64,000 bases of DNA from an uncultured Alphaproteobacteria bacterium (lineage in GTDB: Bacteria; Pseudomonadota; Alphaproteobacteria; Rs-D84): the NCBI GenBank assembly GCA_934232895.1, contig CAKQGH010000002.1:15287-79286 (forward strand), given 5' to 3'. The translations under genes and the position numbers were made by a program. This document shows positions 6,412 to 58,720 of the stretch, piece after piece. The notes beneath the pieces are model-generated. The model was not told the origin of the DNA, did not search any database, and was given only the letters and a program-made list of their open reading frames with translations. Position 1 is the stretch's first letter; each line of letters opens with the position of its first letter.

Positions 6412-6951
6412 ATGAAAAAACTGATAAGTTCTTTGGTTATTTGTATGTGTGCGTTTGGTGCGGCGAATGCGGCCGAATTTACATCGTGTGGCGCGGGCTA
6501 TGTGTTGGCGCCCCATGCCCAGATTGATGGTATAAACGCGGCCGAATGTCAAAAATTGTGGTGCCGTGATTTGGAAACGGGCAAAACGATGGGCAATGGA
6601 AATACCGCGAATACCGGGTATGTTGATACACCAATTCCGAATCAGATATGCGATGCATCGGGCGCATGTATTGATTGTTTCGGCGCACGCAAATGGTGCG
6701 CGGGCGAACCGTCGGGCGAATGGAACGCAGAATATGGCGCGTATACGCGTGGTGGTGCCGATAATGCAACATTCCAATCGTATCAAAAGGGCACTTGTTT
6801 CGCATGGCGCTTGGAAAAGCCTGATTGTCCGAATGGCCAGTCCGCCATATTGCAAAACGACGAATGGGTATGCGTCACCGCCGCCGACACCACCACGGGC
6901 AGTCGCGCGTCTGGCGTGCGCCGCACCAGTGGAATGCGTCGTTTGAACTAG
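6412..6951 (+). CDS. secreted cysteine-rich protein (small member of the Cys-rich family)
   Basis: Signal peptide MKKLISSLVICMCAFGAANA; 13 Cys; RBS gagag upstream. Confidence 0.5.
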   Translation: MKKLISSLVICMCAFGAANAAEFTSCGAGYVLAPHAQIDGINAAECQKLWCRDLETGKTMGNGNTANTGYVDTPIPNQICDASGACIDCFGARKWCAGEPSGEWNAEYGAYTRGGADNATFQSYQKGTCFAWRLEKPDCPNGQSAILQNDEWVCVTAADTTTGSRASGVRRTSGMRRLN

Positions 6952-7636: not shown

Positions 7637-7662
7637 AAACCGCCCCACGGGGCGGTTTTTAA
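7637..7662 (+). terminator. rho-independent terminator
   Basis: aaaaccgccccacggggcggttttt immediately after the stop. Confidence 0.7.
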
Positions 7663-8095
7663 TTAGAGAGCAAAGAGCAATGAGCAGAGAGCAATGAAAT
7701 CCTCTTCACTGGGCGAAGGGGTGTCCGCGCAAGCGGACGGGGTAGTGGTAAATATGTCCCCGCAGGGCAATGGTGACCCTCCTGCGCGGGGATGACAATT
7801 CTTTTTATGTGCTGTGTTCTGTATCTTCGTCGCTGACTAAGTTCTCCTCCTGTGGAGGAGTACCGCGTAGCGGGGTGGTCTTGAGAGTGCGCAAAGTTGT
7901 ACAAAGTTTCAAAAAACGACTACCCCGCCGGGCATATGCCCGGCACCCCTTCTGGCCATAAGGGGATTTAATTGCGTATCCCTGTTGTGGTCTAAATTCC
8001 CCTTCGCTGGCGAAGGGGTGGACGCGTAGCGGACGGGGTAGTGGTAAACAAGTCCCCGCAGGGACAAATAAAAAAACTCCATAAAAATCCCCGCA
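7663..8095. repeat. cluster of RPE-like short palindromic repeat units
   Basis: Units recurring elsewhere in the window: 'ccccttcgctggcgaaggggtg' (x2), 'gacggggtagtggtaaa' (x2), 'gtccccgcaggga' (x2), 'ctcctcctgtggaggag...gggtggtcttgagagtgc', and AGAGCAR heptamers after the stop. Confidence 0.8.
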
Positions 8096-8130
8096 ATGCC
8101 GCGGTGGGTGTGGCGCGGCGTAAAAAAAGA

Positions 8131-8247
8131 AGTGCCGAAAAAAACGGTGGGTTTTTTACGGCACTTTTATACGGAAATTATACCCAGAAATCCGCCAGTT
8201 GGTCAAGTGGTATTTATTGCGCAAAAAACCACCGTTTTTTTCGGCAA
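8131..8247 (+). promoter_or_regulatory. conserved attenuator-like 5' leader of Cys-rich protein gene (copy A)
   Basis: 'agtgccgaaaaaaacggtgg...cggcacttttat' hairpin+U-tract, then distal 'aaaccaccgtttttttcggcaa' that can alternatively pair with the 5' arm. Near-identical copy at 57997-58117 in the same position relative to another family member. Confidence 0.6.
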
Positions 8248-8275: not shown

Positions 8276-9505
8276 ATGAATATGCTGCGTAAAATTTTTC
8301 TGGTTATGATTTGTGCATTGGTTATATACCCAGTCCACGCGGAGTTCTATGCCGGATACCGTAATGAATGTTGGGTTGATGACAAAGGCAGCGATGAATA
8401 CTGGTTTTGTGGATATCAGGCGGAATCGTGTCGAAGCAATGGGGCAACAAAGAAAAATAAAAAAAATTGGATATACGATGGCAAGGGTTTTGTACATGCT
8501 GGTCGAACATTTTGGTGTTGTGGTGGAACCGGCGAAAAGGAAGGCAAATTTGTCGAAGGACTAACATGGATAAAAAGTAGCGCGACGAAAACAAAGTCTG
8601 TTGGTGGTGGCACATGTGAATACACAGAAAGGACAACTGTGTGCGACACAACCGAGGCCGATGATTGCACGGTGCCAACCAAGTGTCCCAGCGGTAAAAT
8701 ACTGCGTAATAAAGAATGCGCGACATTATGTTCCAGTGGCCAGGGATTTCAAAGTGCAACATCCAACACATGCATAGCGTGCAGTGGCACTGACCGTGGT
8801 GTGGACACTAACAAAATATGCGTTGTATGTACCGGTGGGCAAAAATGGAATGGCACGCGGTGCGAGGCCCCCAAAGAGGAAACATGCACATCCGGCCAGG
8901 GCAAAGACAGCAACGGTAAATGCGTTGCGTGTTCTGGCGAAGACAAGGGGGTTGATGACAAGGGCAGTTGTGTTGTCTGTGCTCCTGGGCGGATTTGGGA
9001 CAGTGGTACCAAGGCTTGCAAGGACAAGCCCCAGGAAACCCCAAAGGAAGAACCGAAACAAGAAGAACCTGCACCTGAAGAAGCGGAATCATCTGATGAA
9101 TCAGAACCCGAGACGCCAAAATGCCAAAGTTCTGAATATTTATCACCCAAAAGTGGCAAGTGTGTCAGCAAATCGGCATCAAAACAATACTCGCGCGATA
9201 TGTTTGATTCGTGCTATGCGTGCCCAACCGATACGCGGTTCAAACGTTGTCTAGATTTCTTTCGCAACCCGCCAACCACACTAAAAGAATCGGACAAGAA
9301 GGTTTTGGTTTCATGTAATATTGACCCATCGGAATATGATTCTGATGCGGCCGGCAAAAGCAAGTTCCGGTTGATTGATAAGTTGGGTAAATTGGGTGGC
9401 AAGGGCAAAACCGGCAGCGTCCCAACCAAGGGCAATCCGGGAAATTTGTTGCAAGAATCAGCATACCGAGACAATGTTGCCACTGCTGGGGACTATGAAT
9501 TCTAG
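8276..9505 (+). CDS. secreted cysteine-rich repeat protein (CXXC / furin-like repeats). It is a paralog of the 20212-21411 gene
   Basis: RBS aggggga then ATG. Signal peptide MNMLRKIFLVMICALVIYPVHA. Shared blocks with the paralog: 'YWFCGYQAESC', 'FWCCGGTGEKEGKFVEGLTWIK', 'GGGTCEY', 'CTVPTKCPSGK', 'CVSKSASKQYSRDMFDSCYACPTDTRFKRCL'. Confidence 0.65.
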   Translation: MNMLRKIFLVMICALVIYPVHAEFYAGYRNECWVDDKGSDEYWFCGYQAESCRSNGATKKNKKNWIYDGKGFVHAGRTFWCCGGTGEKEGKFVEGLTWIKSSATKTKSVGGGTCEYTERTTVCDTTEADDCTVPTKCPSGKILRNKECATLCSSGQGFQSATSNTCIACSGTDRGVDTNKICVVCTGGQKWNGTRCEAPKEETCTSGQGKDSNGKCVACSGEDKGVDDKGSCVVCAPGRIWDSGTKACKDKPQETPKEEPKQEEPAPEEAESSDESEPETPKCQSSEYLSPKSGKCVSKSASKQYSRDMFDSCYACPTDTRFKRCLDFFRNPPTTLKESDKKVLVSCNIDPSEYDSDAAGKSKFRLIDKLGKLGGKGKTGSVPTKGNPGNLLQESAYRDNVATAGDYEF

Positions 9506-9519
9506 TACCAGATTTAGGT

Positions 9520-9795
9520 TATAGAGTTTTAAGAATGTGGTTCGCGTGTTGGCCTCTCTACGCAATCGCCCACGAAATAAAAAATTTCGTGGGTGGTTCC
9601 CGGAGGGGAATTTGTTTTTCACGTCGCGGGATGAATTCCCCTTCGCTGGCGAAAGGGTGTCCGCATACGCGGACGGGGTAGTGGTAAAACGACACCCCGG
9701 CACTCCGTGTCACCCCTCTGGCCAGAGGGGAACAAAGCAAGTGCGCCGAATGGCGCACACATTATTTGAACTTTGCACTTTGGTATTTGAACTTT
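9520..9795. repeat. RPE-like palindromic repeat cluster
   Basis: 'cccacgaaataaaaaatttcgtggg', 'ccccttcgctggcgaaagggtg', 'gacggggtagtggtaaaacgacaccccggcactccgtgtcacccctctggccagaggggaac'. Confidence 0.75.
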
Positions 9796-9826
9796 GAAAA
9801 AACGCCCCGGATGGGGCGTTTTTTTA
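9795..9826. terminator. bidirectional rho-independent terminator shared by the convergent Cys-rich gene and groEL
   Basis: aaaaaacgccccggatggggcgttttttt. Confidence 0.7.
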
Positions 9827-11443
9827 CATCATGCCTGGCATGCCGCCACCCATCGCAGGGGCCGCCGGTTTTTCTTCGGGTATTTCGGACATTACGCATC
9901 CCGTGGTCAGGATTGCGCCCGCGGTTGATGCCGCCGCCTGGATTGCGGTTTTCACAACCTTGGCCGGGTCAATAATGCCCGCCGCCATCATATCAACATA
10001 TTCGCCGGTCTGGGCATTGTATCCGAAATTATAGTCGGTCGATTCCGAAACCTTGCCCACGACGATTTCGCCCGATACGCCCGCGTTTTCGGCAATCTGG
10101 GCACATGGGGCAACGATTGCACGGCGAACGATATCAATACCGACATTCTGGTCAGTGTTCGCGCCATGAACATTTGCCAATGCCGCCGCCGCACGAACCA
10201 GCGCAATGCCGCCACCGGCCACGATACCATCGGCAACCGCCGCACGTGTCGCCGCCAACGCATCGTCAACACGGTCTTTCTTTTCTTTAACTTCGACCTC
10301 GGTCATGCCGCCAACCTTGATAACAGCGACGCCACCGACCAATTTCGCCAGACGTTCTGACAATTTTTCACGATCGTATTCCGATGTCGTTGTGGACAAC
10401 AATTTGCGAATTTCGTCCGCACGCGCGTCAATGGCCGATTTGTCACCCGCGCCCTGGGCAATCAGGGTTGAATCCTTGCTGACGACGACCTTTTTCGCAC
10501 TGCCCAAAACCGCCGGGGTAATGTTTTCAAATGTCATACCCATATCGTCCGAAATAACGGTTGCACCGGTCACCGCCGCGATATCTTTCAGCATTTCCTT
10601 GCGGCGATCGCCAAAGCCCGGGGCCTTGACCGCGCAAACTTTCAAACCACCGCGCAGACGGTTCAGCACCAATGTCGCCAACGCTTCGGATTCAACATCT
10701 TCGGCAATAATCAACAGTGGGCGTCCCGATTGTGCAATTGGTTCCAGAATTGGCAGCAATGCCTGTAATCCCGTGATTTTCTTTTCAGAAACCAGGATTT
10801 GCGCGCCGTCCAATTCCGCCAACATTTTTTCGCTGTTGGTGACGAAATATGGCGACATGAATCCCTGGTCAAATTGCATCCCCTCGACCACGTCGATTTC
10901 TGTTTCCAGACCTTTGGCCTCTTCAACGGTGATTACGCCTTCGCGACCAACCTTTTCCATTGCACCGGCGATTTTTTCGCCAATATCACGGTCGGAATTC
11001 GCAGAAATTGTCGCAACCTGGGCGATTTCCGCGCTGTCTTTGACCGGGCGGGCATGTGCGTCAATATCGGCAACAACCGCCGACACCGCCATATCAATGC
11101 CGCGCTTTACATCCATTGGGTTCATACCCGCGGCGATAACACGGCGACCCTCGCGTATAATCTTTTGCGCCAGGACGGTTGCGGTTGTTGTGCCGTCACC
11201 CGCGTCATCACCGGCCTTTTTCGCCACTTCTTGGACCATGCGGGCACCAATGTTTTCCGCCGGGTCTTTCAGTGATACGGCCTTGGCCACGGTTACGCCG
11301 TCCTTGGTTGCGACCGGCGTGCCATACGATTTTTCAATGATTACCGTGCGACCCTTGGGCCCCATGGTGATTTTAACGGCATCGGCCAATTTATCAACGC
11401 CCGCCGCCAGTTTATCTGTATCGAAAACAATATTTTTTGCCAT
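9824..11443 (-). CDS. groL: chaperonin GroEL (60 kDa)
   Basis: 539 aa. '[10 protein letters not shown]', '[12 protein letters not shown]', C-terminal GGM repeat 'GGGMPGMM'. N-terminus somewhat divergent. Confidence 0.95.
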
Positions 11444-18611: not shown

Positions 18612-19592
18612 TAGTGTAAAAAAGAGCAATGAGCAGAGAGCAGAGAGCAATGAAGCGCGCCATTCGGCGTCTTATATTCTTGTCATTCCTGCGTAGGCAG
18701 GAATAGGGCCTTGGAAATTACTCTCACTTGGTGTTGTACAATATTTGGTAAAAAAGTGAATATCAATATCACTGTACACCGCAACATTCTGGGTTTGGCT
18801 CGTTGACACTCGCACTGTATAGTCCCTATTCCTGCCTGCGCAGGAATGACAATCTTTGGGTTCTGTCATTGCGAGCGGAGCGTGGCAATCCAGTAAACGA
18901 CACCCCGTCGCGTTGCGCCACCCCGGCTTTCCAGAGGGGAACAAAGCTCATCATCGTCGCGGAGCAAAATCCCCTTCGCTAAGCGAAGGGGTGACCACGA
19001 AGTGGGCGGGGTAGTGGTAAATACACCCCCGCGGGGCAATGGTGACCCTCCTGCGCCGGCATGACGTTTTTTTGTGCTGTGTCCCTGTATCCCCATCGCG
19101 GAGCAAGTTCCCCACCGGTGGAGGGGTGGCCGCCAGGCCGGGGTGGTCTTGAGAGTGCAATGTGGAATAAATGTAAGACAAAAGACCACCACTCCGCTGC
19201 GCGGTACTCCTCCACAGGAGGAGAACTTGGTATGCTCCCGTTGCGGACTTCTCCGCTGGCAGAACCCCGGGTCGGGGTGATAATTCTTTTTTTGGGGGGG
19301 CGCATCCCTAGCGTGGACTCTCACTTGCCGTCATACCGGCGCAGGCCGGTATCTATTGCCCCGCAGGGACAAAAAGACCACCCCGGCACTCCGTGCCACC
19401 CCTCCACCGGAGGGGAACTTAGTATGTACCGAGAATAAACAAAATTCCCCGTCGCTTGGCCCCCCACGCAAAAAAAAATTTCAATTTCGTGGGACCAGTG
19501 TCGTGGTGGCACGAAGTGCCGGGGTAGTGGTGATTGCGTGTTGCCGGCATCCAAAATAATTCCTGGTGCGGGCGGGGCGGGTGTGATATGGT
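18612..19592. repeat. ~1 kb intergenic hotspot made almost entirely of RPE-like palindromic units plus a MITE copy
   Basis: AGAGCAR heptamers, MITE (18682-18850), 'gtcattgcgagcggagcgtggcaatcca', 'tccccttcgctaagcgaaggggtg', 'ggggtagtggtaaa', 'gttccccaccggtggaggggtg', 'gtcataccggcgcaggccggtat', 'caccccggcactccgtgccacccctccaccggaggggaac', 'cccacgcaaaaaaaaatttcaatttcgtggg'. Confidence 0.85.
18682..18850. mobile_element. MITE-like element copy 1 (~169 bp, ~27 bp hairpin-forming terminal inverted repeats)
   Basis: TIRs 'gtcattcctgcgtaggcaggaataggg' / 'ccctattcctgcctgcgcaggaatgac'. The interior matches copies at 55576-55746 and 58808-58978. Confidence 0.8.
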
Positions 19593-20211: not shown

Positions 20212-21411
20212 TTACATCGCCTGCATTTTGCTGACGGAGAAATCCAATTTCTTCGTCTTGCCCGAAACAACATTCGTCGGCAATGCAATGTCTTTGAGAG
20301 CATCCTCAATCGATGTCGTGCCCGTGGCAACACTGGTTCCGGTTGTGGCCGTGGTTCCGGTGGTTTTGGTCACGGTCGATATGTCATCCGCCATCACCTG
20401 GTCTGCAACTACCACATCGGCAACCTGCATCTGTTGCTCGAGGGCTTTTTTCAACTCATCATTGTCTAGTTTTATTGCTGCGGTTTCTGACAATTTTTTA
20501 TTGATTATACTGTTCGGCAAATCCAATTTTGCAAACACGGGCAATTTCCCAACCAATTCTGATTTCATTGTTTGTGCGTCTGCCTCTGCGTATTGGGCTT
20601 TCGTGACATTGCACGCCTTTAATGTTCCCTCTTGCGTTGATGTCAGCTTGTTGGCATCGGGGGCTGCACGGTATATATTCAGACAGTTTTTGAACCGCAC
20701 ATCGGACGAACACCCATAGCATTCATGCATCATATCGCTTGAGTATTGAACATTTTTGGATTTGCTGACGCACTTATTGCTCAGTGGCGATTTGTATTCG
20801 GTGCTTTTGCATTCGTCACTGGCTGTGATTTTTTTCCCTGAGTCTGCAGTTTTTGTGGTTTCTGTCTTTGGTTTCTCGGGCTCTGTGGCTTGCTTTTTCG
20901 GTGTATCGTCTTTCTTCGTCTCTGTGGTTTTAGGCGTTTCCTGTTTCACGGCGGCGCATTTGCCACCACTAACAACCTGGCCACTGGGGCATGATGTTGG
21001 AACCGTACAGGGTTTGTCCGATTCAACGCTGCCGCAAACATTGGTTGTCTTTTGATATGTGCACGTACCGCCGCCAACATCTATGGTCACATCTTCACTT
21101 TTTTTAATCCATTTTGCGCCAGCAACGAATTTACCCTGGTCAGTTTTGTTTCCATCGCAACACCAGTATTTGGTACCGTCTATGTCAACATCATCCCCGT
21201 GGTAATACCACAGCGATGGTTTATGACTTGATATATGTTTCAAACCAGCACAAGATTCTTTCTGGTTCCCACAAAAGTAGTATTGAACAGTGCTCTGTTT
21301 GGCGCCGTTTATATACCGAAAACATTCGGTACTAAAACCTGTTTTCCACCCAGCCTCTGCGGTGTTGGCGGTCAAAGCACAAATCAATAAAGGCAGAAAA
21401 ATCTTTCTCAT
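20212..21411 (-). CDS. secreted cysteine-rich repeat protein, paralog of the 8276-9505 gene
   Basis: Signal peptide; 'YYFCGNQKESC', 'YWCCDGNKTDQGKFVAGAKWIKK', 'GGGTCTY', 'CTVPTSCPSGQ', 'CVSKSKNVQYSSDMMHECYGCSSDVRFKNCL'. Confidence 0.65.
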   Translation of the reverse strand: MRKIFLPLLICALTANTAEAGWKTGFSTECFRYINGAKQSTVQYYFCGNQKESCAGLKHISSHKPSLWYYHGDDVDIDGTKYWCCDGNKTDQGKFVAGAKWIKKSEDVTIDVGGGTCTYQKTTNVCGSVESDKPCTVPTSCPSGQVVSGGKCAAVKQETPKTTETKKDDTPKKQATEPEKPKTETTKTADSGKKITASDECKSTEYKSPLSNKCVSKSKNVQYSSDMMHECYGCSSDVRFKNCLNIYRAAPDANKLTSTQEGTLKACNVTKAQYAEADAQTMKSELVGKLPVFAKLDLPNSIINKKLSETAAIKLDNDELKKALEQQMQVADVVVADQVMADDISTVTKTTGTTATTGTSVATGTTSIEDALKDIALPTNVVSGKTKKLDFSVSKMQAM

Positions 21412-21508
21412 CTCGTATCACCCGTTGATATTTATTTCCCAGTAATTTTACTACATTTTGCATATTTTTACAATACAAAAATAAACGCGCGTGATTCATG
21501 GGAAATAT

Positions 21509-24193: not shown

Positions 24194-24568
24194 ATGACAA
24201 GAAAAACAGTATTATTTTTTTGTTGTTTTGCGGCACTGACCACCGCCCCGGCATGGGGGGATAATATTAATGTGATATATAAATGCCCCGACGGACAGTA
24301 TGCCAAGGGGGGGAGTGCCGCAACGTGCCAGACCGGGTATACTGGCAACACAAAAAGTCCCGCAGTGTATACAAGTAACGCCACATGCGCCGTATGCCCA
24401 AACACAAGTATGTTTTCAAATGCAATGTATAAAACGAGTGACAGACGGCCTGCTGCGGTCTCGGATTGCTATGCTATGAGCGACAATGGTAAGTTAGAAG
24501 GCGAGGACGAAATGGGCAGCTATAAGATAGAGGGTAATTGCTATTACACAGGACACAGATACAAATAA
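24194..24568 (+). CDS. small secreted cysteine-rich protein
   Basis: Signal peptide MTRKTVLFFCCFAALTTAPAWG; 8 Cys in the mature part. Confidence 0.45.
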   Translation: MTRKTVLFFCCFAALTTAPAWGDNINVIYKCPDGQYAKGGSAATCQTGYTGNTKSPAVYTSNATCAVCPNTSMFSNAMYKTSDRRPAAVSDCYAMSDNGKLEGEDEMGSYKIEGNCYYTGHRYK

Positions 24569-24579
24569 TTGACCAAAAG

Positions 24580-25017
24580 ATGTACAAGATATACAGATTT
24601 TTTATACGATTTGTGGTGTTTGCGTTAACAATGTATTTGTTGCCGTTGTCAGACTATGTGGCATCGTGGTTTGGCGACATTGCATCGGGCGCACACGCCG
24701 CTGGCATCAAATGCAAGGTTAGTGAGATGTGTGATGGGTTGGTGAACGCCTATAAGGATCCCATTAAAAAAGAAAACATCAAAGGTGACATCGACCCGGG
24801 AACAATTATTACGTGTGATTATGGTAATGACCAGTTCCAAGATACGATGTGTGCGTCCGAGGGGAAGGGTATGGCGGTGACCGCATTTTATCTTGGGAAG
24901 AGTGCAGCGAGCTGCACAGAAAATGCCAGGTGTATGGTTAATTTGTTTGGCACAAGATATGCTGACACACAAGCGGGCTGGAGCAATATGTCCTCCGATT
25001 TTACTATTTGTAATTAA
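24580..25017 (+). CDS. hypothetical membrane-anchored Cys-containing protein
   Basis: N-terminal hydrophobic segment MYKIYRFFIRFVVFALTMYLL. Confidence 0.35.
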   Translation: MYKIYRFFIRFVVFALTMYLLPLSDYVASWFGDIASGAHAAGIKCKVSEMCDGLVNAYKDPIKKENIKGDIDPGTIITCDYGNDQFQDTMCASEGKGMAVTAFYLGKSAASCTENARCMVNLFGTRYADTQAGWSNMSSDFTICN

Positions 25018-25028
25018 ATGCATTTGTT

Positions 25029-25790
25029 ATGTTACACGGACGCGCAAAGTTTGTTTATAATACACATTTGGAACCGCATTTGTTCGATGCAGAGGGCCAG
25101 ATGCGTCCATTGGTTGTTGATGCGTTGATATTGTTTGCAAATAATTATTTATCATTTTTGTCGCGGTTGGGAATCCCCGTGTCGGCGGACGATGTGCGTG
25201 ACATTTTGGCATACGGCAGCACCACAAACTATTACTATGATGACGCCAGCGATATTGATGTTGTAATATTTGTTGATTGGACCAAAATTTCTAAAAATTT
25301 ACCGGGCCTGGATATGAGCGCAATGGGGCGCGCATTGATGAGTGCATGGAAACGTGGGTATAACTTGCGCATTTTGGGGCGCCGTGTTGATATGCACATT
25401 GAAAACATAGACGCCCCCAGCGAAGGGCCCGATGTCATAAAACCGGGCAGTATATATTCGCTGATGCGGCGTTGTTGGATTCGACGGCCCGAAATGTTAT
25501 CAAACGATGCTGTTAAACAAATTCGACGCGATGCGATGGCGCGATATCGTAAAATTCGCCAAACGTATTATGAAATTCGCCTGAATAAAATGGGACCGAA
25601 ATACATAACATCATTCATAAAAACATTGCGTGAAGAGAAAAATAAAAGTGTACATGAAAATGCACTGTGCCCCATTACACCGACAATTATGGCATATCGT
25701 ATGGCGCGCAAGGTTGGCATTCTGGATGACCTGAATGCCCGAATTGCCCAGCAGAGTGTTAAAAACTTTGATTTGTCATTTTTGGAATAG
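25029..25790 (+). CDS. nucleotidyltransferase-fold (Pol-beta superfamily) protein, paralog 1 of a tandem pair
   Basis: 'YGSTTNYYYDDASDIDVVIFVD' matches hG[GS]x9-13DhDh. ~250 aa with a helical C-terminal half (KNTase/Lnu-like architecture). Confidence 0.5.
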   Translation: MLHGRAKFVYNTHLEPHLFDAEGQMRPLVVDALILFANNYLSFLSRLGIPVSADDVRDILAYGSTTNYYYDDASDIDVVIFVDWTKISKNLPGLDMSAMGRALMSAWKRGYNLRILGRRVDMHIENIDAPSEGPDVIKPGSIYSLMRRCWIRRPEMLSNDAVKQIRRDAMARYRKIRQTYYEIRLNKMGPKYITSFIKTLREEKNKSVHENALCPITPTIMAYRMARKVGILDDLNARIAQQSVKNFDLSFLE

Positions 25791-25800
25791 GGGGCGGAAT

Positions 25801-26565
25801 ATGTTTGGTATTACGCGCCGTCGGCCGGTGTTTATTTATCATAACCATTTGGATGAAACCGTTTGGAATCGCGATGCAACTATGCGCGCGGTTGTTAAAA
25901 ATGCCCTGAATACCATGGTTGGGTCATATATTTCATATATGCATCGTGCGGGGTTGCCGATAACGCACGATATGATTTCGGATATTTTAATTCATGGTTC
26001 GGTGGCCGATTATTATTGGGACAGTACCAGTGACATTGATATTTGCATCATAATGGACTGGGCGCCATTGCGTGAAAAATTTCCCGATGTCGATGTGTAT
26101 ACATTGATGAAATCGCTGTTGCTGTCGTGGTATCGCAGTTATCGCATTCGTATCGTCGGGCACGGCGTTGATGTCGAGGTTGCCGATTTGAACGCACCAG
26201 CGTATGGTGAAAACCTGTGGAAAATTGGCAGTCGTTATTCATTGATGCACGATGCGTGGATTGTTCGCCCAAATTTGCTGTCGCCGGATGCGGTGCGCGA
26301 TATTCGTCGCGCGGCATTGGAAAAATATCGCGAAATCGAACGCGAATATAAAAACATTTGTCGCAATAAAATGTCGGCGGGTTTTGTCGATGCGTTTTTG
26401 GCGCGACTGTGGGCCGAACGTGGTGCGGCATTACATGAAAATACCAATTCATGTGTGTGCCCGGGTGCAATGGCGTTTCGTATGGCGCGTCGCACGGGCA
26501 TATTGCGCGATTTGTCCGAACGCGCCGCACAAAATCGTTCCAGGAATTTTAATGTTAAATATTAA
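25801..26565 (+). CDS. nucleotidyltransferase-fold protein, paralog 2 of the tandem pair
   Basis: 'HGSVADYYWDSTSDIDICIIMD'; collinear with paralog 1 along its length; RBS aataggggg. Confidence 0.5.
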   Translation: MFGITRRRPVFIYHNHLDETVWNRDATMRAVVKNALNTMVGSYISYMHRAGLPITHDMISDILIHGSVADYYWDSTSDIDICIIMDWAPLREKFPDVDVYTLMKSLLLSWYRSYRIRIVGHGVDVEVADLNAPAYGENLWKIGSRYSLMHDAWIVRPNLLSPDAVRDIRRAALEKYREIEREYKNICRNKMSAGFVDAFLARLWAERGAALHENTNSCVCPGAMAFRMARRTGILRDLSERAAQNRSRNFNVKY

Positions 26566-30791: not shown

Positions 30792-32282
30792 ATGTTGCAC
30801 ACATCTGATTTTGATTTTGAATTGCCATCTGAATTGATTGCATCGCACCCGCTGGCGCGCCGTGACGCATCCCGTATGCTGGTGGTGAAAAGTTCCCCTC
30901 CGTTGGGGGGGTGTCGCGAATGCGACGGGGTGGTCAGAGATTCCGTAAATTACAGAACATTGCCATTTAACAGTAAATTAAAAGAAAAAGCACGCGCTTT
31001 GCGTCGCGCTGGCAGTTTGCCAGAAGTACTGTTATGGAAAGAAATCAAAAATCATCAATTGAACGGGTTGGATTTTGACAGACAGAAAGTCATAGGCGAT
31101 TATATAGTGGACTTTTTCTGTGCGTCCAGATTCGTCGTTCTGGAAATAGACGACAAAGCGACGCATGCTTTAAAAGCAGAATCCGATGCGGCGCGCGACG
31201 AGTATATGCGTGGCCTGAATCTCACTGTTATACGAATCCCGGCGGCGGATGTGTTGAAAGATGCACATGCGGTTTATCTGTGGCTCTCTAACCACCCCGC
31301 CTTGCAGGCGCCCCTCCAACGGAGGGGAACTTGTGTCGAATTATCTGACCGGCATATTCGGGATTTTTTGGATTATATTCGCCCGGGCGATGTTGTGGTG
31401 TTTAATAATTCGCGTGTTATTCCGGCGCGTTTTGATGCGACCGATGCCGCGGGGCATGCGTATGAAATCACACTGCACACCGCGGCGGGCGGCAAACTGT
31501 GGTGGGGCCTGTGCAAGAAATTCACCCGCATTGCGGTTGGCGACACATTGACCATGACCGATGGCACGCAAATCCGCGTGGTTGCAACCGACCCCGACAG
31601 TGGGTTAAAACTGGAATTTTTATGCGATGATGTGTTTGCGGTTCTGAATAAAATTGGCAAAATGCCATTGCCACCATATATGCATCGCGACCAGGAATAT
31701 TCCGACCGTGAACGGTATCAGACCGTGTATGCCGACCCAATTGGTTCAATGGCGGCGCCAACCGCGGGGCTGCATTTTACCCCAGAACTGATGGATGAAA
31801 TCACGCGTCGTGGTGCAACGATTGTAAAGGTCACACTGCACGTTGGTGCGGGCACATGGATGCCGGTCAAGACCGAGGATTTATCCCAACACAAAATGCA
31901 CAGCGAGTGGTGCCAGATTACCCCCGCCCAGGCGGATATTATAAACAATGCAAATCGCGTTATTGCGGTGGGTACGACATCAATGCGAACGTTGGAAAGT
32001 GCGGCAATGCGTAATCGTGAATTGCCGGAATCAGAGCGTGGCCACCGTGTTGTGCCGTTTTGTGATACGACCGATATATTTATTACACCGGGGTACACAT
32101 TTGGTGCGGTGGACGTGTTGCTGACGAATTTCCATTTGCCAAAATCTACATTATTTATGTTGGTTTCCGCGTTCGCTGGATTGGATGAAATGAAGGCCGC
32201 GTACGCGCATGCGGTCGCCGAAAAATACAGATTCTTTTCATACGGCGATTGTTGTTTGTTATTTAAAAAGGATGGGGAATAA
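30792..32282 (+). CDS. queA: S-adenosylmethionine:tRNA ribosyltransferase-isomerase QueA carrying a ~154 aa in-frame insertion
   Basis: QueA N-terminus 'DFDFELPSELIASHPLARRDASRMLVV', then the insertion, then 'IRPGDVVVFNNSRVIPARF...GTTSMRTLESAA...TNFHLPKSTL'. 496 aa versus ~345 typical. Confidence 0.85.
   Translation: MLHTSDFDFELPSELIASHPLARRDASRMLVVKSSPPLGGCRECDGVVRDSVNYRTLPFNSKLKEKARALRRAGSLPEVLLWKEIKNHQLNGLDFDRQKVIGDYIVDFFCASRFVVLEIDDKATHALKAESDAARDEYMRGLNLTVIRIPAADVLKDAHAVYLWLSNHPALQAPLQRRGTCVELSDRHIRDFLDYIRPGDVVVFNNSRVIPARFDATDAAGHAYEITLHTAAGGKLWWGLCKKFTRIAVGDTLTMTDGTQIRVVATDPDSGLKLEFLCDDVFAVLNKIGKMPLPPYMHRDQEYSDRERYQTVYADPIGSMAAPTAGLHFTPELMDEITRRGATIVKVTLHVGAGTWMPVKTEDLSQHKMHSEWCQITPAQADIINNANRVIAVGTTSMRTLESAAMRNRELPESERGHRVVPFCDTTDIFITPGYTFGAVDVLLTNFHLPKSTLFMLVSAFAGLDEMKAAYAHAVAEKYRFFSYGDCCLLFKKDGE
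30888..31349 (+). mobile_element. in-frame insertion inside queA: a DUF559 (Vsr/MutH-like endonuclease fold) domain followed by an RPE-like palindrome
   Basis: 'LPEVLLWKEIKNHQLNGLDFDRQKVIGDYIVDFFCASRFVVLEIDDKATH...RDEYMRGLNLTVIRIPAADV' DUF559 signature. RPE unit 'caccccgccttgcaggcgcccctccaacggaggggaac' at 31284-31330 translated in-frame. Confidence 0.7.
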
Positions 32283-40211: not shown

Positions 40212-40667
40212 TTATTTTATGCATGGCACAATCTTGCCGATGATTGTGCTGTTGCCACCGTATTGCAATTGATATTTATATCCACATGGAACCGGAATTG
40301 AAAACGACATATATCGTGTGGTATTCAGGTCGTCATCTTGGAACATATAGGTCATGACAATTTGGTCGTTGGCGTCCAGTATTTTTATACTGGCGGTTGC
40401 GTTCCATATTAATTTTATGTATCCCTGTAAAAACAGGTTTTCATTGGCGGTATATGTGCCGATGCCTGTAATGGCCGATGATCTTGCATAATCGGGCATT
40501 AAATTAAACACCGCATCGGCGCGTGCCAGCATTGTGCCGCCGGCGGTCACGCCATCGTGCACGCGAATGGTCTTGTTGGTGGTGTCAACGGTAATCTCGC
40601 CATCGGCCCCGGTAAAGTTTGCGTGCTCGTCGGCGGTCCCACGCCGAAACTGAATTTGTCTTGCCAT
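40212..40667 (-). CDS. small protein with phage tail-fibre-type N-terminal domain (MxxxIQxRRGT...)
   Basis: 'MARQIQFRRGTADEHANFTGADGEITVDTTNKTIRVHDGVTAGG' resembles the conserved N-terminus of phage tail fibre / Mtd-like proteins. Confidence 0.45.
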   Translation of the reverse strand: MARQIQFRRGTADEHANFTGADGEITVDTTNKTIRVHDGVTAGGTMLARADAVFNLMPDYARSSAITGIGTYTANENLFLQGYIKLIWNATASIKILDANDQIVMTYMFQDDDLNTTRYMSFSIPVPCGYKYQLQYGGNSTIIGKIVPCIK

Positions 40668-40908: not shown

Positions 40909-42264
40909 ATGAAATGTTTTATATCTGCTTTTTTGTTGGGGGCGTTTATGCCGGCCGTCGCCGCCGCGGTGGACGCGGCCCCGGCCGCCGGCACAACTGA
41001 AATTACCATGACCACGACCCAGGCCATGCAACTGGCGGGAAAATTGGTACAATCGGGCGATATTGAACACGCAACCCAAATTTTAACTATGACGCCCAAC
41101 ACCGGAAACGGCGAACTGGAAACCGAGCGGTGGTTTTTGCTGGCGCAAATTGCATCGCGGCGGGGCGATATTGATGAGGCAATTCGCATTTATCAAAAAA
41201 TACTGGATGCACGCCCCAATGCGGCCCGCGTGCGGTTTGAATTGGCATTGTGCTATATGCACCAGGGCCGGTGGTCGCGTGCGGATTATCATCTGCGCCT
41301 GGCCATGGCGGGGGACGATTTGTCCGACGATGTAAAACGGATGATGAATTACTATCGCTATGTCGTGCGCCAGAACAAAAATTGGAACGTGTATTTTAAT
41401 TTTGGTGCCGCCCCCGACAATAACATAAACAACGCGACCGGCGGTGCAGAGTGTGTTATGACCATCTGGGGGGCGTTCTGTCGCGATTTGCCCGCGCCGG
41501 AATCGGCGGTTGGCACCAATTTCCAGCTGGGTGGTGATTACGAATTCAAATTATCAGACCGGTGGCGCTGGAAATCAGATGCGGGCATATACACAAATAT
41601 TTATAACAAACACCAATACGACGATTTGTATTTGTCCGCCGGGACCGGCCCGCGGTATGTATGGTCGCGTGGCGATGTGTGGTTGGCGGGAACGGTTGCG
41701 CGGCGCTGGTACGATTGGCGCCGGTATAATTGGTCGGCTGGGGCCAAGCTGAATGCTAATTATGATTTCACGCGCAAAATGTCGGGCGGGTTGACATTGT
41801 CGGCAATGAATAATCGCTATGATGAATATGGCGATTTCCTGGATGGAAAAACATACGGCGCGTCCGCCCGCATAGTGTATTCGTTTAACGCGGGGGTGTA
41901 TACGGTGCTGCGTGGTGGTTTTTCGCGTGAATTGGCGGCCAGCCCGACATATTCGTATCGCCAACCGAGCCTGTCCGTGGGCATAGGTGCGGAATTGCCA
42001 TGGGGATTTGGCATTTATGCCGAGCCCAGCATTTATTGGACACGATATGACGGCGCGCGTTGGGCGGTCCGTGACGGCCAAATCAGCGAGATTACCGAAC
42101 GCGATTTCACGCATCGGTATGCGGTGTCGGTGTCAAATAATAAACTGGATGTACTGGGGTTTGTGCCGACCATCACGGTCAGTTATACCCGTCGCGATTC
42201 CAATATGTGGCAGCGCGAGTTTAGCAAAACCGCCATTGAATTCACCATGATGCAACGGTTCTAA
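40909..42264 (+). CDS. outer-membrane protein with N-terminal TPR region and C-terminal beta-barrel (DUF560/Slam-like architecture)
   Basis: Signal peptide MKCFISAFLLGAFMPAVAAAV; TPR-like helices 'ALCYMHQGRWSRADYHLRLA'; ~300 aa of alternating beta-strands ending in Phe. Confidence 0.4.
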   Translation: MKCFISAFLLGAFMPAVAAAVDAAPAAGTTEITMTTTQAMQLAGKLVQSGDIEHATQILTMTPNTGNGELETERWFLLAQIASRRGDIDEAIRIYQKILDARPNAARVRFELALCYMHQGRWSRADYHLRLAMAGDDLSDDVKRMMNYYRYVVRQNKNWNVYFNFGAAPDNNINNATGGAECVMTIWGAFCRDLPAPESAVGTNFQLGGDYEFKLSDRWRWKSDAGIYTNIYNKHQYDDLYLSAGTGPRYVWSRGDVWLAGTVARRWYDWRRYNWSAGAKLNANYDFTRKMSGGLTLSAMNNRYDEYGDFLDGKTYGASARIVYSFNAGVYTVLRGGFSRELAASPTYSYRQPSLSVGIGAELPWGFGIYAEPSIYWTRYDGARWAVRDGQISEITERDFTHRYAVSVSNNKLDVLGFVPTITVSYTRRDSNMWQREFSKTAIEFTMMQRF

Positions 42265-42451
42265 ACAGAGAGCAGAGTGTAGAGAGCAGAGAGCAATGAA
42301 AAGTGAGCAAGTGACAGAGCGATAAAGTGATACAGTTTTTTCTACGAACATAATTCATTTTCTGCGGAATATTATTTTTAAGTCGTCATACCGACGAAGG
42401 TCGGTATCCATTGCCCCGCAGGGACTGATAATACCACTACCCCGTCCGCCC
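42265..42451. repeat. left ~185 bp inverted repeat (IR-L) of the invertase/adhesin cassette
   Basis: Reverse complement matches 45338-45523 at ~90% identity, including the unique stretch 'aagtgagcaagtgacagagcgataaagtgatacag...ttctgcggaatattatttttaagtcgtcataccgacgaagg...ctgataataccactaccccgtccgccc'. Confidence 0.8.
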
Positions 42452-42596
42452 AGGGCGTCCACCCCTTCGCCAGCGAAGGGGAATTTGATAGAGTCACCCT
42501 CTTGTCATTGCGAGCGCAGCGTGGCAATCCATAAAACGACACCCCGGCACTGCGTGCCACCCCTCTCGCCAGAGGGGAACTTTCATTGCTCTCTAT
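42452..42596. repeat. RPE-like unit cluster inside the cassette
   Basis: 'caccccttcgccagcgaagggg', 'gtcattgcgagcgcagcgtggcaatcca', 'caccccggcactgcgtgccacccctctcgccagaggggaac'. Confidence 0.75.
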
Positions 42597-42626
42597 GAAA
42601 AAACCGCCCGGTGGGGCGGTTTCGAA
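42597..42626 (-). terminator. rho-independent terminator of the adhesin gene
   Basis: On the minus strand: cgaaaccgccccaccgggcggtttttt. Confidence 0.65.
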
Positions 42627-42648
42627 AGGATAAAAAACAAACTGTCAA

Positions 42649-44352
42649 TTAAAACAATTTGAATTTATAGTTCGTGCCGGCACGGAACGCAACATCTGCG
42701 TCAGAGATACCAGCGCCAACATTGACAGACCAGTTATTGGTCAGACCCATCGCGGCACCAAATGCCACCGCGGATTGGCTGTTATAGTTGCCAAAACCGG
42801 CGCCAACGGACACTTCGCCGCGTTCAACACCAGATACGGCGACCGACGACAATGCGACCGAGCTGGCAATACCCGCAGACAGGTTTTTGTCCAGTTTATC
42901 GATTCTTTGGTCGGTGTATGCATTTGCAGCCGCCAGCGAGAATGCCGCGCGTTCATCCGCGTATGCTTTCGCGCTGTTCAATGTCATCGCATCTTGGGCA
43001 ACCGCATATTCTTTTGCGGTGTTCAGTGTTGCTTCGTCAGCCAAGGCAAACGCTTCACGAACGGCGGTATCTTTTTCATCTGTGTATGTTTTTGCAGATG
43101 CCAAAGTTGCCTGGTCCCCAGCGGTCATATCAGAACGAATTTGATCATCAGCTGCGGCAAATTCACTGCGAACTGCGTCGTCCCCAGCGGTCATATCAGA
43201 ACGAATTTGATCATCAGCTGCGGCAAATTCACTGCGAACTGCGTCGTCCCCGGCGGTCATATCAGAACGAATTTGATCATCAGCTGCGGCAAATTCACTG
43301 CGAACTGCATCGTCCCCGGCGGTCAAAGCATCATTGATTACGCCACCGTCGGCAACCGATGCGGAAATAGCGTCGTTTGCACGATTGTCAATTGTATCGG
43401 TAATCGGCGCATCAAAGATTTCGCGCGCGGCCGCCTGGCGTTCATTGTCCGCGGTCCATGCATTGGACGTGGTTTCCTGGTTCGCCAATGCGGCGTTCCA
43501 TTGTTCGCCCGCGTTTGCAATTGTTGCATAACGTTCGTTCAGTTCGTTGACCGTATTTGTGTCGTTTTCAAACACTGTATTGGCGGCATTGAATAATGGT
43601 GCTTCTGCGGCATATTCCGCACCTGTTTCGGTCTTGGCGGCATCAACACTTGCCGTGTCGGTTGTGAACGCCGTCTGCATTTCGTTGAATGCGTTTTCCA
43701 ATGCCGAACCCGGTTCTGGATCAACCAGTCCGCCACGGTCGTCGACCAATCTGCTGCCATCCGCATTCAGACGAAATTCACGACCTTCTGCATCTGTGTA
43801 TTTATAGCGTGTGCCATCAAATGTCGGGGCGTCACCGTTTTTCACGGTGATGGTTGCATCGTCTCCAGATACGTATGTGCTGTTCAGTGTAACATCCTGG
43901 GAAAAATCAGGTACAGATTCGCCCAATGTCACATCTTCGCCCGCGCTGTTTTTGTATTTGTAATTTGCGCGATCCATTGTTGCGCCTGCAACAATGTCCT
44001 GGGTCGTGGTGATGTCACCAGTTGCGCCGGATGTGCCGATATAATCGGACTGTTGCGGCAGGCTGTCCGTATTTTCTGGGTCGTATGCCTGCCAGTTGCC
44101 AGCGGTGTCTTTGTATTTAAAGTCGTCCGCGTTTGGTCCATCGGCATAGTTTTTGGTAACCGTACTGCCATTATAATCAGTATATGTGTAATTATAATTT
44201 GCAGAATCCAGGTCTGTGCCAGCATTCTGTTCTGTGCCGTTTGCGGTCGTATATTTACCAGCAAATGTCACATCAGTAGTTGCCGCGTGTGCGCCGGCGA
44301 ACGCCAAAATGCCCGCCAGTGAAAACGCAGTCAAAACCAAAGGTTTTTTCAT
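42649..44352 (-). CDS. trimeric autotransporter adhesin (type Vc; YadA-like C-terminal membrane anchor)
   Basis: Signal peptide MKKPLVLTAFSLAGILAFAGAHA; stalk with neck-like 'TLxSAKxYTD' repeats and three identical 22-aa repeats. C-terminus 'IDKLDKNLSAGIASSVALSSVAV...GEVSVGAGFGNYNSQSAVAFGAAMGLTNNWSVNVGAGISDADVAFRAGTNYKF' matches the YadA_anchor pattern. RBS aagagga. Confidence 0.8.
   Translation of the reverse strand: MKKPLVLTAFSLAGILAFAGAHAATTDVTFAGKYTTANGTEQNAGTDLDSANYNYTYTDYNGSTVTKNYADGPNADDFKYKDTAGNWQAYDPENTDSLPQQSDYIGTSGATGDITTTQDIVAGATMDRANYKYKNSAGEDVTLGESVPDFSQDVTLNSTYVSGDDATITVKNGDAPTFDGTRYKYTDAEGREFRLNADGSRLVDDRGGLVDPEPGSALENAFNEMQTAFTTDTASVDAAKTETGAEYAAEAPLFNAANTVFENDTNTVNELNERYATIANAGEQWNAALANQETTSNAWTADNERQAAAREIFDAPITDTIDNRANDAISASVADGGVINDALTAGDDAVRSEFAAADDQIRSDMTAGDDAVRSEFAAADDQIRSDMTAGDDAVRSEFAAADDQIRSDMTAGDQATLASAKTYTDEKDTAVREAFALADEATLNTAKEYAVAQDAMTLNSAKAYADERAAFSLAAANAYTDQRIDKLDKNLSAGIASSVALSSVAVSGVERGEVSVGAGFGNYNSQSAVAFGAAMGLTNNWSVNVGAGISDADVAFRAGTNYKFKLF
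43123..43320. repeat. 3 x 66 bp perfect tandem direct repeat inside the adhesin stalk coding region
   Basis: Unit 'ggtcatatcagaacgaatttgatcatcagctgcggcaaattcactgcgaactgcgtcgtcccc[a/g]gc' x3, encoding AGDDAVRSEFAAADDQIRSDMT. Confidence 0.9.
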
Positions 44353-44386
44353 GTTTTTTCCTCTTATTTAAATTAATTTAAACCGT

Positions 44387-44408
44387 GATGCGTGGTGCAC
44401 CACGCATC
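44387..44408. promoter_or_regulatory. perfect 22 bp palindrome (10-2-10) 35 bp upstream of the adhesin start codon
   Basis: gatgcgtggtGCaccacgcatc. Confidence 0.5.
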
Positions 44409-44412
44409 TACT

Positions 44413-44438
44413 CTTACACAAACGAACGTTTGTGTAAG
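44413..44438. promoter_or_regulatory. perfect 26 bp palindrome with 12-2-12 geometry (hix/gix-like candidate recombinase or operator site)
   Basis: cttacacaaacgAAcgtttgtgtaag. Confidence 0.5.
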
Positions 44439-44471
44439 TGCCAGTGGTCAGTATTCTTACGGCAACGGCCA

Positions 44472-44503
44472 AATGTCTGGAATCCGTTATAATCCAGACA
44501 TTT
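44472..44503 (+). promoter_or_regulatory. 10 bp inverted repeat enclosing a consensus TATAAT -10 box (candidate operator-overlapped promoter of the recombinase gene)
   Basis: aatgtctggaatccgTTATAATccagacatt. Confidence 0.4.
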
Positions 44504-44588
44504 TTTGTTGTGGAATAATATGATTTGAATATAGAAAAAAACAGTTGATTTAATCGTTCGTTTAAAATGACAGAAATAGGAGGAAAAA

Positions 44589-45242: not shown

Positions 45243-45262
45243 AGAGAGCAGAGAGCAATGAC

Positions 45263-45290
45263 GCGCGCCGGTGGCGCGCCTGTTTTTTAT
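45263..45290 (+). terminator. rho-independent terminator after the recombinase gene
   Basis: gcgcgccggtggcgcgcctgtttttt. Confidence 0.7.
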
Positions 45291-45337
45291 CGTCGCGGAC
45301 CAAGTTCCCCTCCGGTGGAGGGGTGGTGCGAAGCACC

Positions 45338-45523
45338 GGGCGGACGGGGTAGTGGTATTATCAGCCCCTGCGGGGCAATGGTGGCCCTCCTTCGTCGGTA
45401 TGACGACTTAAAAATAATATTCCGCAGAAAATGAAATATGTTCGTAGAAAAAAACTGTATCACTTTATCACTCTGTCACTTACTCACTTTCATTGCTCTT
45501 TGCTCTCTGATCTTTGCTCTCTG
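45338..45523. repeat. right ~185 bp inverted repeat (IR-R) of the invertase/adhesin cassette
   Basis: Reverse complement of 42265-42451. Confidence 0.8.
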
Positions 45524-45527
45524 AATA

Positions 45528-45556
45528 AGAAACGCGCCGGTGGCGCGTTTCTTATT
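45528..45556. terminator. bidirectional terminator (aagaaacgcgccggtggcgcgtttctt) at the 3' end of the tolC-like gene
   Basis: Perfect hairpin flanked by A/T runs on both sides. Confidence 0.65.
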
Positions 45557-57976: not shown

Positions 57977-57996
57977 CCCTGGGGCTCCCTGCTATA

Positions 57997-58117: not shown

Positions 58118-58274
58118 TATTCACATTTTCGCCCGGATTTCTGCGCCACTGCGCCGTTTTTTTAGGCAATTTTGTTTTCGCCTCAAACCCGCAGAAATCC
58201 GGGGGCCAAAATATTGACAAAATCATTGTGTTGTATTACAATTTAGTGTGTAAAACCAACCAAGGGGTACAATT

Positions 58275-58718: not shown

Positions 58719-58720
58719 TA

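Follow-up and report, generated by a model that had tools for sequence, protein, structure and literature searches.

Variable exported cysteine-rich proteins and a putative invertible promoter cassette in an uncultured gut alphaproteobacterium

We analysed a 64,000-nt stretch of DNA (the window) from an uncultured Alphaproteobacteria bacterium (Rs-D84; GenBank assembly GCA_934232895.1, contig CAKQGH010000002.1, positions 15,287–79,286 of the forward strand), in which five genes encode secreted proteins rich in cysteine (Cys). These are gene A (8276–9505, plus strand, 409 amino acids (aa)), gene B (20212–21411, minus strand, 399 aa), gene C (6412–6951, plus strand, 179 aa), gene D (24194–24568, plus strand, 124 aa) and gene E (55859–57976, minus strand, 705 aa). 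A and B belong to a protein family that is new to the libraries searched, and its members appear to be mosaics of exchangeable domains; in this description of family and mosaicism as a whole we have high confidence. A short promoter cassette flanked by inverted repeats lies immediately upstream of A and also of the unrelated gene E. The explanation that suits the observations best is that these are variable exported proteins, with the cassette as a mini-inverton parked in the OFF state; we put it forward tentatively, as an account that comes close to being probable. Below, L001, L058, L082, L120, L123 and L132 denote compared contigs or loci, and P0002, P0003 and P0077 denote family proteins.

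Results

Export and cysteine content of the five proteins

An earlier note on this DNA had claimed five signal-peptide-bearing Cys-rich open reading frames (ORFs), and all five were found at the coordinates given above, with B and E on the minus strand. Signal peptides were assigned by rules only (n-h-c layout, small residues at −3 and −1), without SignalP. By this check all five N-termini contain two basic residues, a hydrophobic core and an AXA-type or small-X-small signal peptidase site; the predicted cleavage sites of A to E are VHA↓E, AEA↓G, ANA↓A, AWG↓D and AVA↓E, respectively. The same rules detected a lipobox in none of the five. Two grounds for doubt had been named beforehand, namely that signal peptides would prove absent or that the ORFs would prove to be pseudogene fragments of one gene, and neither applies to A–E.

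The Cys content of A, B, C, D and E was 7.1, 4.3, 6.7, 6.5 and 7.4%, respectively, against a window median of 1.06% (56 non-overlapping ORFs). The mature proteins contain 28, 16, 10, 6 and 52 Cys residues, every number being even, and CXXC motifs were counted five times in A and in E and once each in B, C and D. Cys columns are invariant in the alignments of homologs, and among E homologs this holds for nearly all Cys residues. In addition, a DsbA-family gene adjoins one paralog locus of the A/B type. The signal peptides, the even Cys counts, the invariant Cys columns and the neighbouring DsbA-family gene mark A–E as genuine exported proteins, with a Cys pattern indicative of disulfide bonds. 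The earlier description of such proteins as poorly characterised suits them well; they are exported, rich in Cys and without Pfam or NCBIfam annotation.

The idea that the five form one family did not survive. All-versus-all BLASTP of A–E returned a single match, between A and B (E 8e-42, 30% identity), which bears out their proposed paralogy. Comparison of the A/B profile with the E profile by hhalign gave a probability of 1%, and D versus E also gave about 1%. An independent hidden Markov model (HMM) of 102 distant A/B-family members, run against all six-frame ORFs of the window, recovered A (4.5e-76) and B (3.6e-55) and no other family match; C and E were absent at E ≤ 10, and D appeared at E 1.6. 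A single family of five was ruled out by BLASTP, hhalign and this HMM, and A–E belong to at least four unrelated families. C and D both lie outside the A/B family. E represents a separate orphan family, for which a word-indexed search of 5.8 billion proteins found 7 clusters. The internal duplication proposed for E was confirmed; aa 62–183 (nt 57428–57793, minus strand) match aa 572–684 (nt 55925–56263) with 39% identity (E 2e-13).

A small ORF next to D (24580–25017), with a hydrophobic N-terminus and 7 Cys residues, overlaps the end of D (region 24538–26565). Beyond it come two ORFs, of 253 and 276 aa, which are paralogs of each other with no assigned function; the first matches phrog_36119 at 7e-10.

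The A/B family

The word-indexed search with A found 13 clusters among the 5.8 billion proteins. Searching 1.84 billion representatives with the A/B profile yielded 143 clusters at E ≤ 1e-3, 121 of which remained at E ≤ 1e-10. A typical member is 255–300 aa long and consists of a signal peptide, a beta-rich head of about 110 aa, one CXXC module and a small C-domain with six Cys; the scaffold of the head reads C...fCG...C...CC...G.f...C...Cg...C...C. No member of the family has a Pfam or NCBIfam match, and the only named relative is Candidatus Enterousia excrementavium. The family thus described is unannotated and restricted in lineage, its members coming from gut Alphaproteobacteria such as Ca. 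Enterousia.

In A, the signal peptide (aa 1–22) is followed by a variable head (aa 23–130), two CXXC modules (aa 131–250), a Pro/Glu/Lys linker (aa 251–282), a conserved C-domain with six Cys (aa 283–350) and a basic tail ending in ...AGDYEF. The CXXC-rich stalk (8666–9025, plus strand) matches the module of the family HMM (positions 145–213) twice and is missing from B. The earlier note had A and B collinear over about 400 aa; the homology stands, but its extent was overstated, as A has about 105 extra CXXC-module residues and the C-terminal tails of the two proteins are unrelated.

The Enterousia member follows a thymidine kinase gene and tRNA-Arg, the same position as that of B, which makes B the gene at the ancestral locus and A a derived copy. 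Further A/B copies in related genomes are located between obg and rubrerythrin and between prfA and recO/dsbA. With two loci in the window and three to four per genome, the A/B type is indeed multi-copy, as had been suggested. In this species the family has grown to three to four loci and has acquired Pro/Glu/Lys linkers and alternative tails.

Domain replacement and rates of change

Comparison of the window with the sister strain L001 gave 98.5% identity over the stretch that comprises pfor, C, carD and the first 41 nt of A; from codon 131 of A onward, the identity was 98.3%. The block in between, which encodes the head of A (8317–8665, plus strand, aa 15–130), has zero detectable nucleotide similarity to the syntenic gene of L001. 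Among 15 family proteins at least six head types can be distinguished (35–45% identity between types and 90–100% within), and these occur in free combination with four types of C-domain and several types of tail. A and P0003, for example, have the head in common (90%) and differ in the C-domain (65%), whereas A and P0002 have the C-domain in common (100%) and differ in the head (36%). Patches of 91–92% nucleotide identity were found in linker and tail when B was compared to a gene at a different paralog locus from another sample. These patterns show that recombination between alleles and paralogs has reassorted heads, C-domains and tails.

Identity to the sister strain was 78% for A and 75% for E, compared to about 95% for C and 90% for D; for B, the comparison with B-type proteins of other assemblies gave about 94%. 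In comparison with a more distant species, the coding DNA of E was 70–74% identical or undetectable, and the neighbouring lemA-PHP-rpsD DNA was 93% identical. Judged by these values, the A-type and E-type genes are the fast-evolving ones, and the two genes that carry the cassette evolve fastest among the five.

Dispersed palindromic repeat families resembling repetitive extragenic palindromes (REP) or miniature inverted-repeat transposable elements (MITE) are found at 7637–8063, 9620–9830, 18613–19441, 42259–42622, 45199–45550, 55335–55836 and 58793–59101. They fill the intergenic DNA around A, near B, around an adhesin/invertase gene pair and around E, and they are also present at paralog loci of other genomes; they may mediate the rearrangements observed. 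E and its cassette share a segment of about 3.1 kb with a lipoprotein gene, and this segment has inverted repeats of 176 nt at its ends (55573–55748 and 58806–58981, 91% complementary). Relative to lemA-PHP-rpsD, this segment (55573–58981) is inverted in a related species (L132), in which the flanks are collinear at 93% and the segment lies on the opposite strand.

A promoter cassette with inverted repeats upstream of A and E

The cassette consists of an exact 17-mer (GCCGAAAAAAACGGTGG), a core of 78 nt and the exact reverse complement of the 17-mer, and the start codon lies 30 nt further on at A and 22 nt further on at E; the 21-mer form of the arm is AAGTGCCGAAAAAAACGGTGG. Upstream of A it runs from 8132 to 8247, with the distal site GTGCCGAAAAAAACGGTGG at 8132–8150, an inner partial copy extending to 8164 and the proximal site ACCACCGTTTTTTTCGGCAA at 8227–8247. 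Upstream of E it runs from 57997 to 58112, with invariant arms at 57999–58015 and 58094–58110. The cores are located at 8151–8228 (A) and 58016–58093 (E). The exact 17-mer occurs four times in the window, where 0.54 occurrences would be expected even with up to three mismatches allowed. The arms (17–21 nt) are invariant in all eight aligned copies, even at an E ortholog with a protein identity of 49%. Each end of the cassette is dyad-symmetric as read off the sequence (GTGCCGAAAAAAAC-GGTGG-GTTTTTTACGGCAC and TTGCGCAAAAAAC-CAC-CGTTTTTTTCGGCAA), and the asymmetric CGGTGG centre of the sites is inverted between the two ends, which is how recombinase core sites are laid out. At about 115 bp the cassette is unusually small, and it is a new sequence type.

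Both cassettes contain a sigma-70-type promoter directed away from the gene: TTGACC-18-TATAAT (8177–8206, minus strand, 11/12 consensus positions) at A, and TTGACA-17-CAAAAT (58039–58067, plus strand, 10/12) at E. No inward-facing sigma-70 promoter was found in either cassette, and the stretch between proximal arm and start codon is too short to contain one. At both genes inverted repeats surround a promoter immediately upstream of the coding sequence, which is one of the features of invertons. A hairpin arises where the distal arm pairs with the inner partial copy beside it (GTTTTTTACGGCAC and variants). In the cassette of A, this hairpin (8121–8164, minus strand, −17.5 kcal/mol, z −5.9) lies directly downstream of the outward promoter and is followed by UUCUUUUUUUA; read on the plus strand, it has UUUUAU after it. 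The promoter at E likewise reads into a hairpin and then UUUUUUAUU. The combination of hairpin and U-run is confined to the outward side of the cassette, and it makes up an intrinsic-terminator-like trap for the outward transcript. With the core inverted, the hairpin would arise beside the proximal arm and have AAAGAACAUAG behind it, without a U-tract.

None of B, C and D is preceded by the cassette. A candidate fixed promoter faces B (TTGTAA-17-TAAAAT, 21445–21473, minus strand, 9/12), and the region upstream of B is conserved in the ortholog locus L120. The B-type ortholog of Ca. Enterousia excrementavium (L123, 2900–3000) has a different 5' element, consisting of a 10-bp inverted repeat (GGTCAGGAGG/CCTCCTGACC, about 47 nt apart) and, some 25 nt ahead of the ATG, a hairpin (CCACCAAAATTTTTTGGTGG) that resembles a terminator and has a T-run behind it.

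A near-identical cassette, with one indel in the proximal arm, was found in another gut alphaproteobacterial metagenome-assembled genome (MAG; L058, CALXWX010000004.1, 4439–5272). The gene behind this cassette encodes a third type of secreted Cys-rich protein, 234 aa long, and the outward promoter (TTGACG-18-TAAAAT) faces ssb. This protein has only a short CxxGYY...CxxCP...TDIxQCY module in common with E (E 0.003). At the A-type loci (carD-groEL, obg-rubrerythrin and prfA-recO), the gene upstream of the cassette lies on the strand of the A-type gene. Divergent from E lies a gene for a 147-aa lipoprotein (58275–58718, plus strand) with a promoter of its own (58214–58242, TTGACA-17-TACAAT, 11/12); this lipoprotein gene is duplicated in L132.

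A leader or attenuation function of the hairpin was considered and rejected. Rfam at gathering thresholds found only tRNAs in the window and no riboswitch or known leader RNA, and its E-value mode gave solely far-sub-threshold chance matches in the 5' regions. Attenuation is implausible because the competing arm would be transcribed after the terminator.

The invertase and adhesin genes

The only recombinase encoded in the window is an Mpi-family serine DNA invertase (44589–45242, plus strand). Read from an ATA start, it matches NCBIfam NF009949 at 1.3e-78 over positions 3–197 of 203, with a score of 263 bits (cutoff 272). The listed ORF starts at GTG, after the catalytic YIRVSS motif, and no ATG, GTG or TTG is present ahead of this motif (44577–44636), in a sequence that is identical in seven assemblies. 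The in-frame codons upstream of the listed start are ISFIGYIRVSSNKQ, preceded by AGGAGG; translation probably starts at the ATA at 44589, five nt after the AGGAGG ribosome-binding site.

A hix-like 26-bp palindrome (CTTACACAAACG-AA-CGTTTGTGTAAG, 44414–44439) with an inverted partner at 44552–44563 lies in the 237-bp intergenic region between the invertase gene and a divergent YadA-type adhesin gene, and may be a site at which the invertase acts. In this region the seven assemblies are identical, with no polymorphism of orientation. The adhesin gene (42649–44352, minus strand, with a YadA anchor) and the invertase gene are bracketed by 124-nt inverted repeats (42336–45453). The adhesin contains three 66-nt tandem repeats (43108–43330), and its length is 523, 545 or 567 aa depending on the strain.

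Fold and resemblance to eukaryotic domains

AlphaFold2 (15-sequence alignment) predicted a beta-rich head and stalk for aa 60–250 of A with good confidence (predicted local distance difference test (pLDDT) about 85–92), and a disordered Pro/Glu/Lys linker and tail. The model of E was weaker, with a mean pLDDT of 62. The furin-like or variant-specific surface protein (VSP)-like character that had been proposed was not borne out, and neither was a tumour necrosis factor receptor (TNFR)-like one. The furin-like, TNFR and Ephrin_rec_like models of Pfam matched none of A–E at E ≤ 1, NCBIfam gave no match, and the nearest Pfam score was a sub-threshold one to Ephrin_rec_like in the distant relative P0077 (E 0.035, 14 bits, cutoff 23). 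Sequence searches of the PDB with A and E gave no matches. Foldseek against the PDB and BFVD (viral models) returned nothing significant (E values ≥ 0.025); the top non-significant matches were the cysteine-rich domain of EphA2/A4, OX40, 4-1BB, IGF1R and HER3, and there were weak non-significant matches to fibre and tail-fibre shafts. At the level of sequence, membership of the furin, TNFR, VSP or Ephrin_rec_like families was rejected on the Pfam, NCBIfam and PDB negatives; the Foldseek matches stayed below significance. "Furin-like" is a matter of style here, a disulfide-stapled hairpin ladder, and not of membership.

Does the cassette invert?

From its anatomy, true DNA inversion of the cassette appears a real possibility that stays somewhat short of probable. 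The cassette would then be a mini invertible promoter, switched OFF in the majority of cells. Turning over the 78-bp core, a site-specific recombinase would join ...AAGAAGTGCCGAAAAAAACGGTGG to TTTTTTGCGCAATAAATACCAC..., and the flipped promoter would read through the hairpin, now without U-tract, into the gene, resulting in phase-variable expression of the A-type and E-type genes. The ON-state transcript would begin with the hairpin GUGCCGUAAAAAACCCACCGUUUUUUUCGGCA, followed by the mRNA of A, whereas OFF cells would make a terminated RNA of about 45 nt from near 8170 on the minus strand. B would be expressed from its fixed promoter.

Several observations weigh against this account. A flipped cassette was seen in none of the 13 complete cassettes (seven of A-type, five of E-type and L058), which come from at least nine samples and at least three species. 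A partial cassette at a contig end has the outward orientation as well, as do 15 extended gene calls that run across the cassette. With a 78-bp core and about 95 bp between the centres of the sites, the element is very short for inversion. The outward promoter in L058 may simply be the promoter of ssb, and promoters with flanking inverted repeats are not always invertons (PMC11602134). The hix-like sites beside the invertase differ in sequence from the cassette arms of A and E, which leaves the invertase no more than a candidate recombinase for the cassette. A surface location of the proteins, in turn, is presumed; they have no recognisable anchor, beta-barrel or lipobox, and neither sequence nor structural homologs yield a function for them.

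Orientation was judged on consensus assemblies, which report the majority state only. A switch with about 5% of cells ON, like that of cwpV (see Discussion), would look like the single orientation observed. Two metagenome scans of the Joint Genome Institute (JGI) gave no copy of the cassette, and a 17-mer scan of a genome collection gave mostly chance matches, with L058 and L082 among the matches listed.

Source of the DNA and other features of the window

The G + C content of the window is about 49%, and its GroEL groups with proteins named just "Alphaproteobacteria bacterium". The same B, C, D, E and GroEL sequences recur, without a difference, on contigs that apparently belong to a Hadza human-gut metagenome. 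Besides the YadA-type adhesin, the genome encodes PFOR, lipopolysaccharide (LPS) glycosyltransferases and TolC/ABC exporters. The earlier note had placed these proteins in intracellular bacteria; with a gut MAG, relatives in Ca. Enterousia and this gene content, no sign of an intracellular life was found.

Two further genes were observed. An orphan 151-aa ORF (40212–40667, minus strand) contains an Mtd_N domain (Pfam 1.1e-15; PHROG tail protein 4e-13), and no other phage genes were noticed nearby. In queA (30792–32282), an in-frame insertion of a DUF559 domain (Vsr-like endonuclease, aa 62–161, approximately 30975–31274, Pfam 3.7e-23) splits the Queuosine_synth domain; it is bounded by REP-like inverted repeats (30890–30931 and 31291–31332).

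Discussion

The data describe a family of some 140 clusters, all without annotation, in which a swappable head is built on a disulfide scaffold that stays fixed. They also bring out a short cassette that is conserved better than the proteins behind it and that marks the fastest-evolving exported proteins. In the arrangement we envisage, a rigid disulfide-stapled stalk would present the variable head, and the proteins would be exported to the periplasm and probably be exposed on the envelope or released. Diversifying selection is likely, whether by host immunity, by phages or by competitors. A role in host interaction or surface variation had been suggested in the earlier note. The idea of surface or antigenic variation agrees with the head replacement between strains, the reassortment of modules and the switch-like cassette. 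For a role as variable envelope or secreted factors in general, we consider the chances evenly balanced. To our knowledge, gut Alphaproteobacteria of the Enterousia kind, common in human and animal guts, are almost undescribed in their dealings with host, phages and neighbours.

The most serious competitor of the mini-inverton is a cassette that never moves. It would be a fixed regulatory module, with the arms as operators of a regulator or as a bidirectional terminator/insulator and the outward promoter serving divergent transcription, of ssb in L058 and perhaps of the lipoprotein gene at E, and the Cys-rich genes would be transcribed under unspecified conditions from an unrecognised promoter, for instance that of an alternative sigma factor. 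The single orientation in 13 of 13 complete cassettes is what such a module predicts, the outward promoter does face ssb in L058 and the lipoprotein gene at E, the hairpin is terminator-like on both strands, and promoters of this kind that do not invert have been described (PMC11602134). We regard the fixed module as possible, and as serious especially given the promoter facing ssb. However, the A-type loci examined have a same-strand gene upstream of the cassette, and in the window the outward promoter has no gene downstream and runs straight into the terminator, while the lipoprotein gene has its own 11/12 promoter. In addition, no inward sigma-70 promoter exists, proximal arm and ATG are 22–30 nt apart, and the conservation of the arms is absolute, not covarying. 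A MITE that combines terminal inverted repeats with an outward promoter, and that landed ahead of these genes by accident, would also account for the size of about 115 bp, the perfect terminal repeats, the multiple copies per genome and the surroundings full of REP/MITE-like repeats. Target-site duplications are absent, however, and the cassette stands at a constant short distance and in constant orientation before a secreted Cys-rich gene and nowhere else in the 64 kb, and is conserved across species at orthologous loci. We dropped the MITE on the missing duplications and the fixed position relative to the start codons, and give it hardly any credence.

Other alternatives concern the proteins. 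A and E could be released effectors in interbacterial competition or phage defence (bacteriocin-like, receptor-decoy or phage-receptor), the head being a receptor-binding domain in a microbial arms race. Head replacement and shuffling do resemble the evolution of polymorphic toxins, bacteriocins and receptor-binding proteins, the family is restricted to gut lineages, and there are the weak structural matches to fibre and tail-fibre shafts. Such effectors seem improbable, as those matches are non-significant, no toxin, immunity or secretion-system gene adjoins any of the loci, and A, C, D and E have no PHROG matches. A phage origin was rejected on the same PHROG searches, in which B gave just a weak low-complexity match. 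More improbable still is the original proposal of one expanded family of five furin-like or VSP-like host-interaction proteins in an intracellular bacterium. All five are secreted and Cys-rich, CXXC motifs are frequent in A and E, and the sub-threshold Ephrin_rec_like score and the weak Foldseek matches to Eph, TNFR and IGF1R lean the same way; against these stand the lack of homology of C, D and E to A/B or to each other in BLASTP, the negative A/B HMM, the negative hhalign comparisons (A/B with E, D with E) and the absence of Pfam/NCBIfam matches, of a VSP-type transmembrane segment with CRGKA tail and of intracellular signs in this gut MAG.

We thus retain the variable exported proteins with a mini-inverton as the preferred explanation. 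Should the cassette flip, it would rank with the smallest known promoter invertons and give this phylum its first case linked to a Cys-rich secretome; should it not flip, it would still be a new regulon marker for variable exported proteins. A broader proposal is VSP-style variation in gut Alphaproteobacteria, in which non-homologous exported Cys-rich proteins (A-type, E-type and the type of L058) would share an invertible cassette of about 115 bp with a terminator trap, on top of head exchange among three to four loci. In this full form the proposal is rather unlikely; if true, it joins ON/OFF phase variation and antigenic variation in a way that is undescribed in this phylum and protein family.

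Variable exported proteins with switch-like control are a kind of system already known. The nearest functional analogue is CwpV of Clostridioides difficile, with its RecV-dependent switch. CwpV is exported to the envelope and combines a conserved part with an antigenic part that varies between strains; its switch relies on short inverted repeats, with a terminator that acts when OFF, and has about 95% of cells OFF and about 5% ON in culture (PMC2784873, PMC3080850). Here too, a domain varies between strains and a switch-like element lies just upstream, with a terminator hairpin and U-run only in the orientation observed. The cwpV switch measures 195 bp and lacks a promoter, however, whereas the core described here measures 78 bp and contains one; inversion and surface location, demonstrated for cwpV, are here proposed. 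Moreover, the host of cwpV is Gram-positive and anchors the protein to an S-layer, unlike the diderm studied here, whose proteins have no recognisable anchor and no sequence relationship to CwpV.

Next closest are the Mpi promoters of Bacteroides fragilis, in which Mpi inverts 13 regions (PMC4747536). The likeness lies in a gut commensal whose promoters, flanked by inverted repeats of one type, stand before several unlinked loci for (here presumed) surface molecules, and in the Mpi-family invertase of the window (NF009949, 1.3e-78). By sequence, the system described here is a member of neither the CwpV nor the Mpi type. The differences are that this invertase scores under the NCBIfam cutoff (263 versus 272 bits), that the arms are unlike the hix-like site adjoining it, that the targets are proteins instead of capsule operons, that no orientation polymorphism was seen and that the phylum is another.

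Cassette-type antigenic variation of a surface protein is exemplified by pilE/pilS of Neisseria. As in that system, a variable domain on a conserved scaffold is exchanged among several genomic copies; unlike pilS, the copies here are full-length with signal peptides, without silent partial cassettes, and the exchange is known between strains, with none within a clone.

At the level of the protein, the Eph-receptor-like (PF07699), TNFR and furin-like domains and the VSPs of Giardia are likewise small disulfide-stapled beta-hairpin ladders with CXXC spacing that form rigid extracellular stalks. The head and C-domain described here have no counterpart in any of these families, and the source is bacterial. 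VSPs of the Giardia type end in a transmembrane helix and a CRGKA tail, whereas the C-termini found here (...AGDYEF, ...SKMQAM and ...IFYAGD) have neither.

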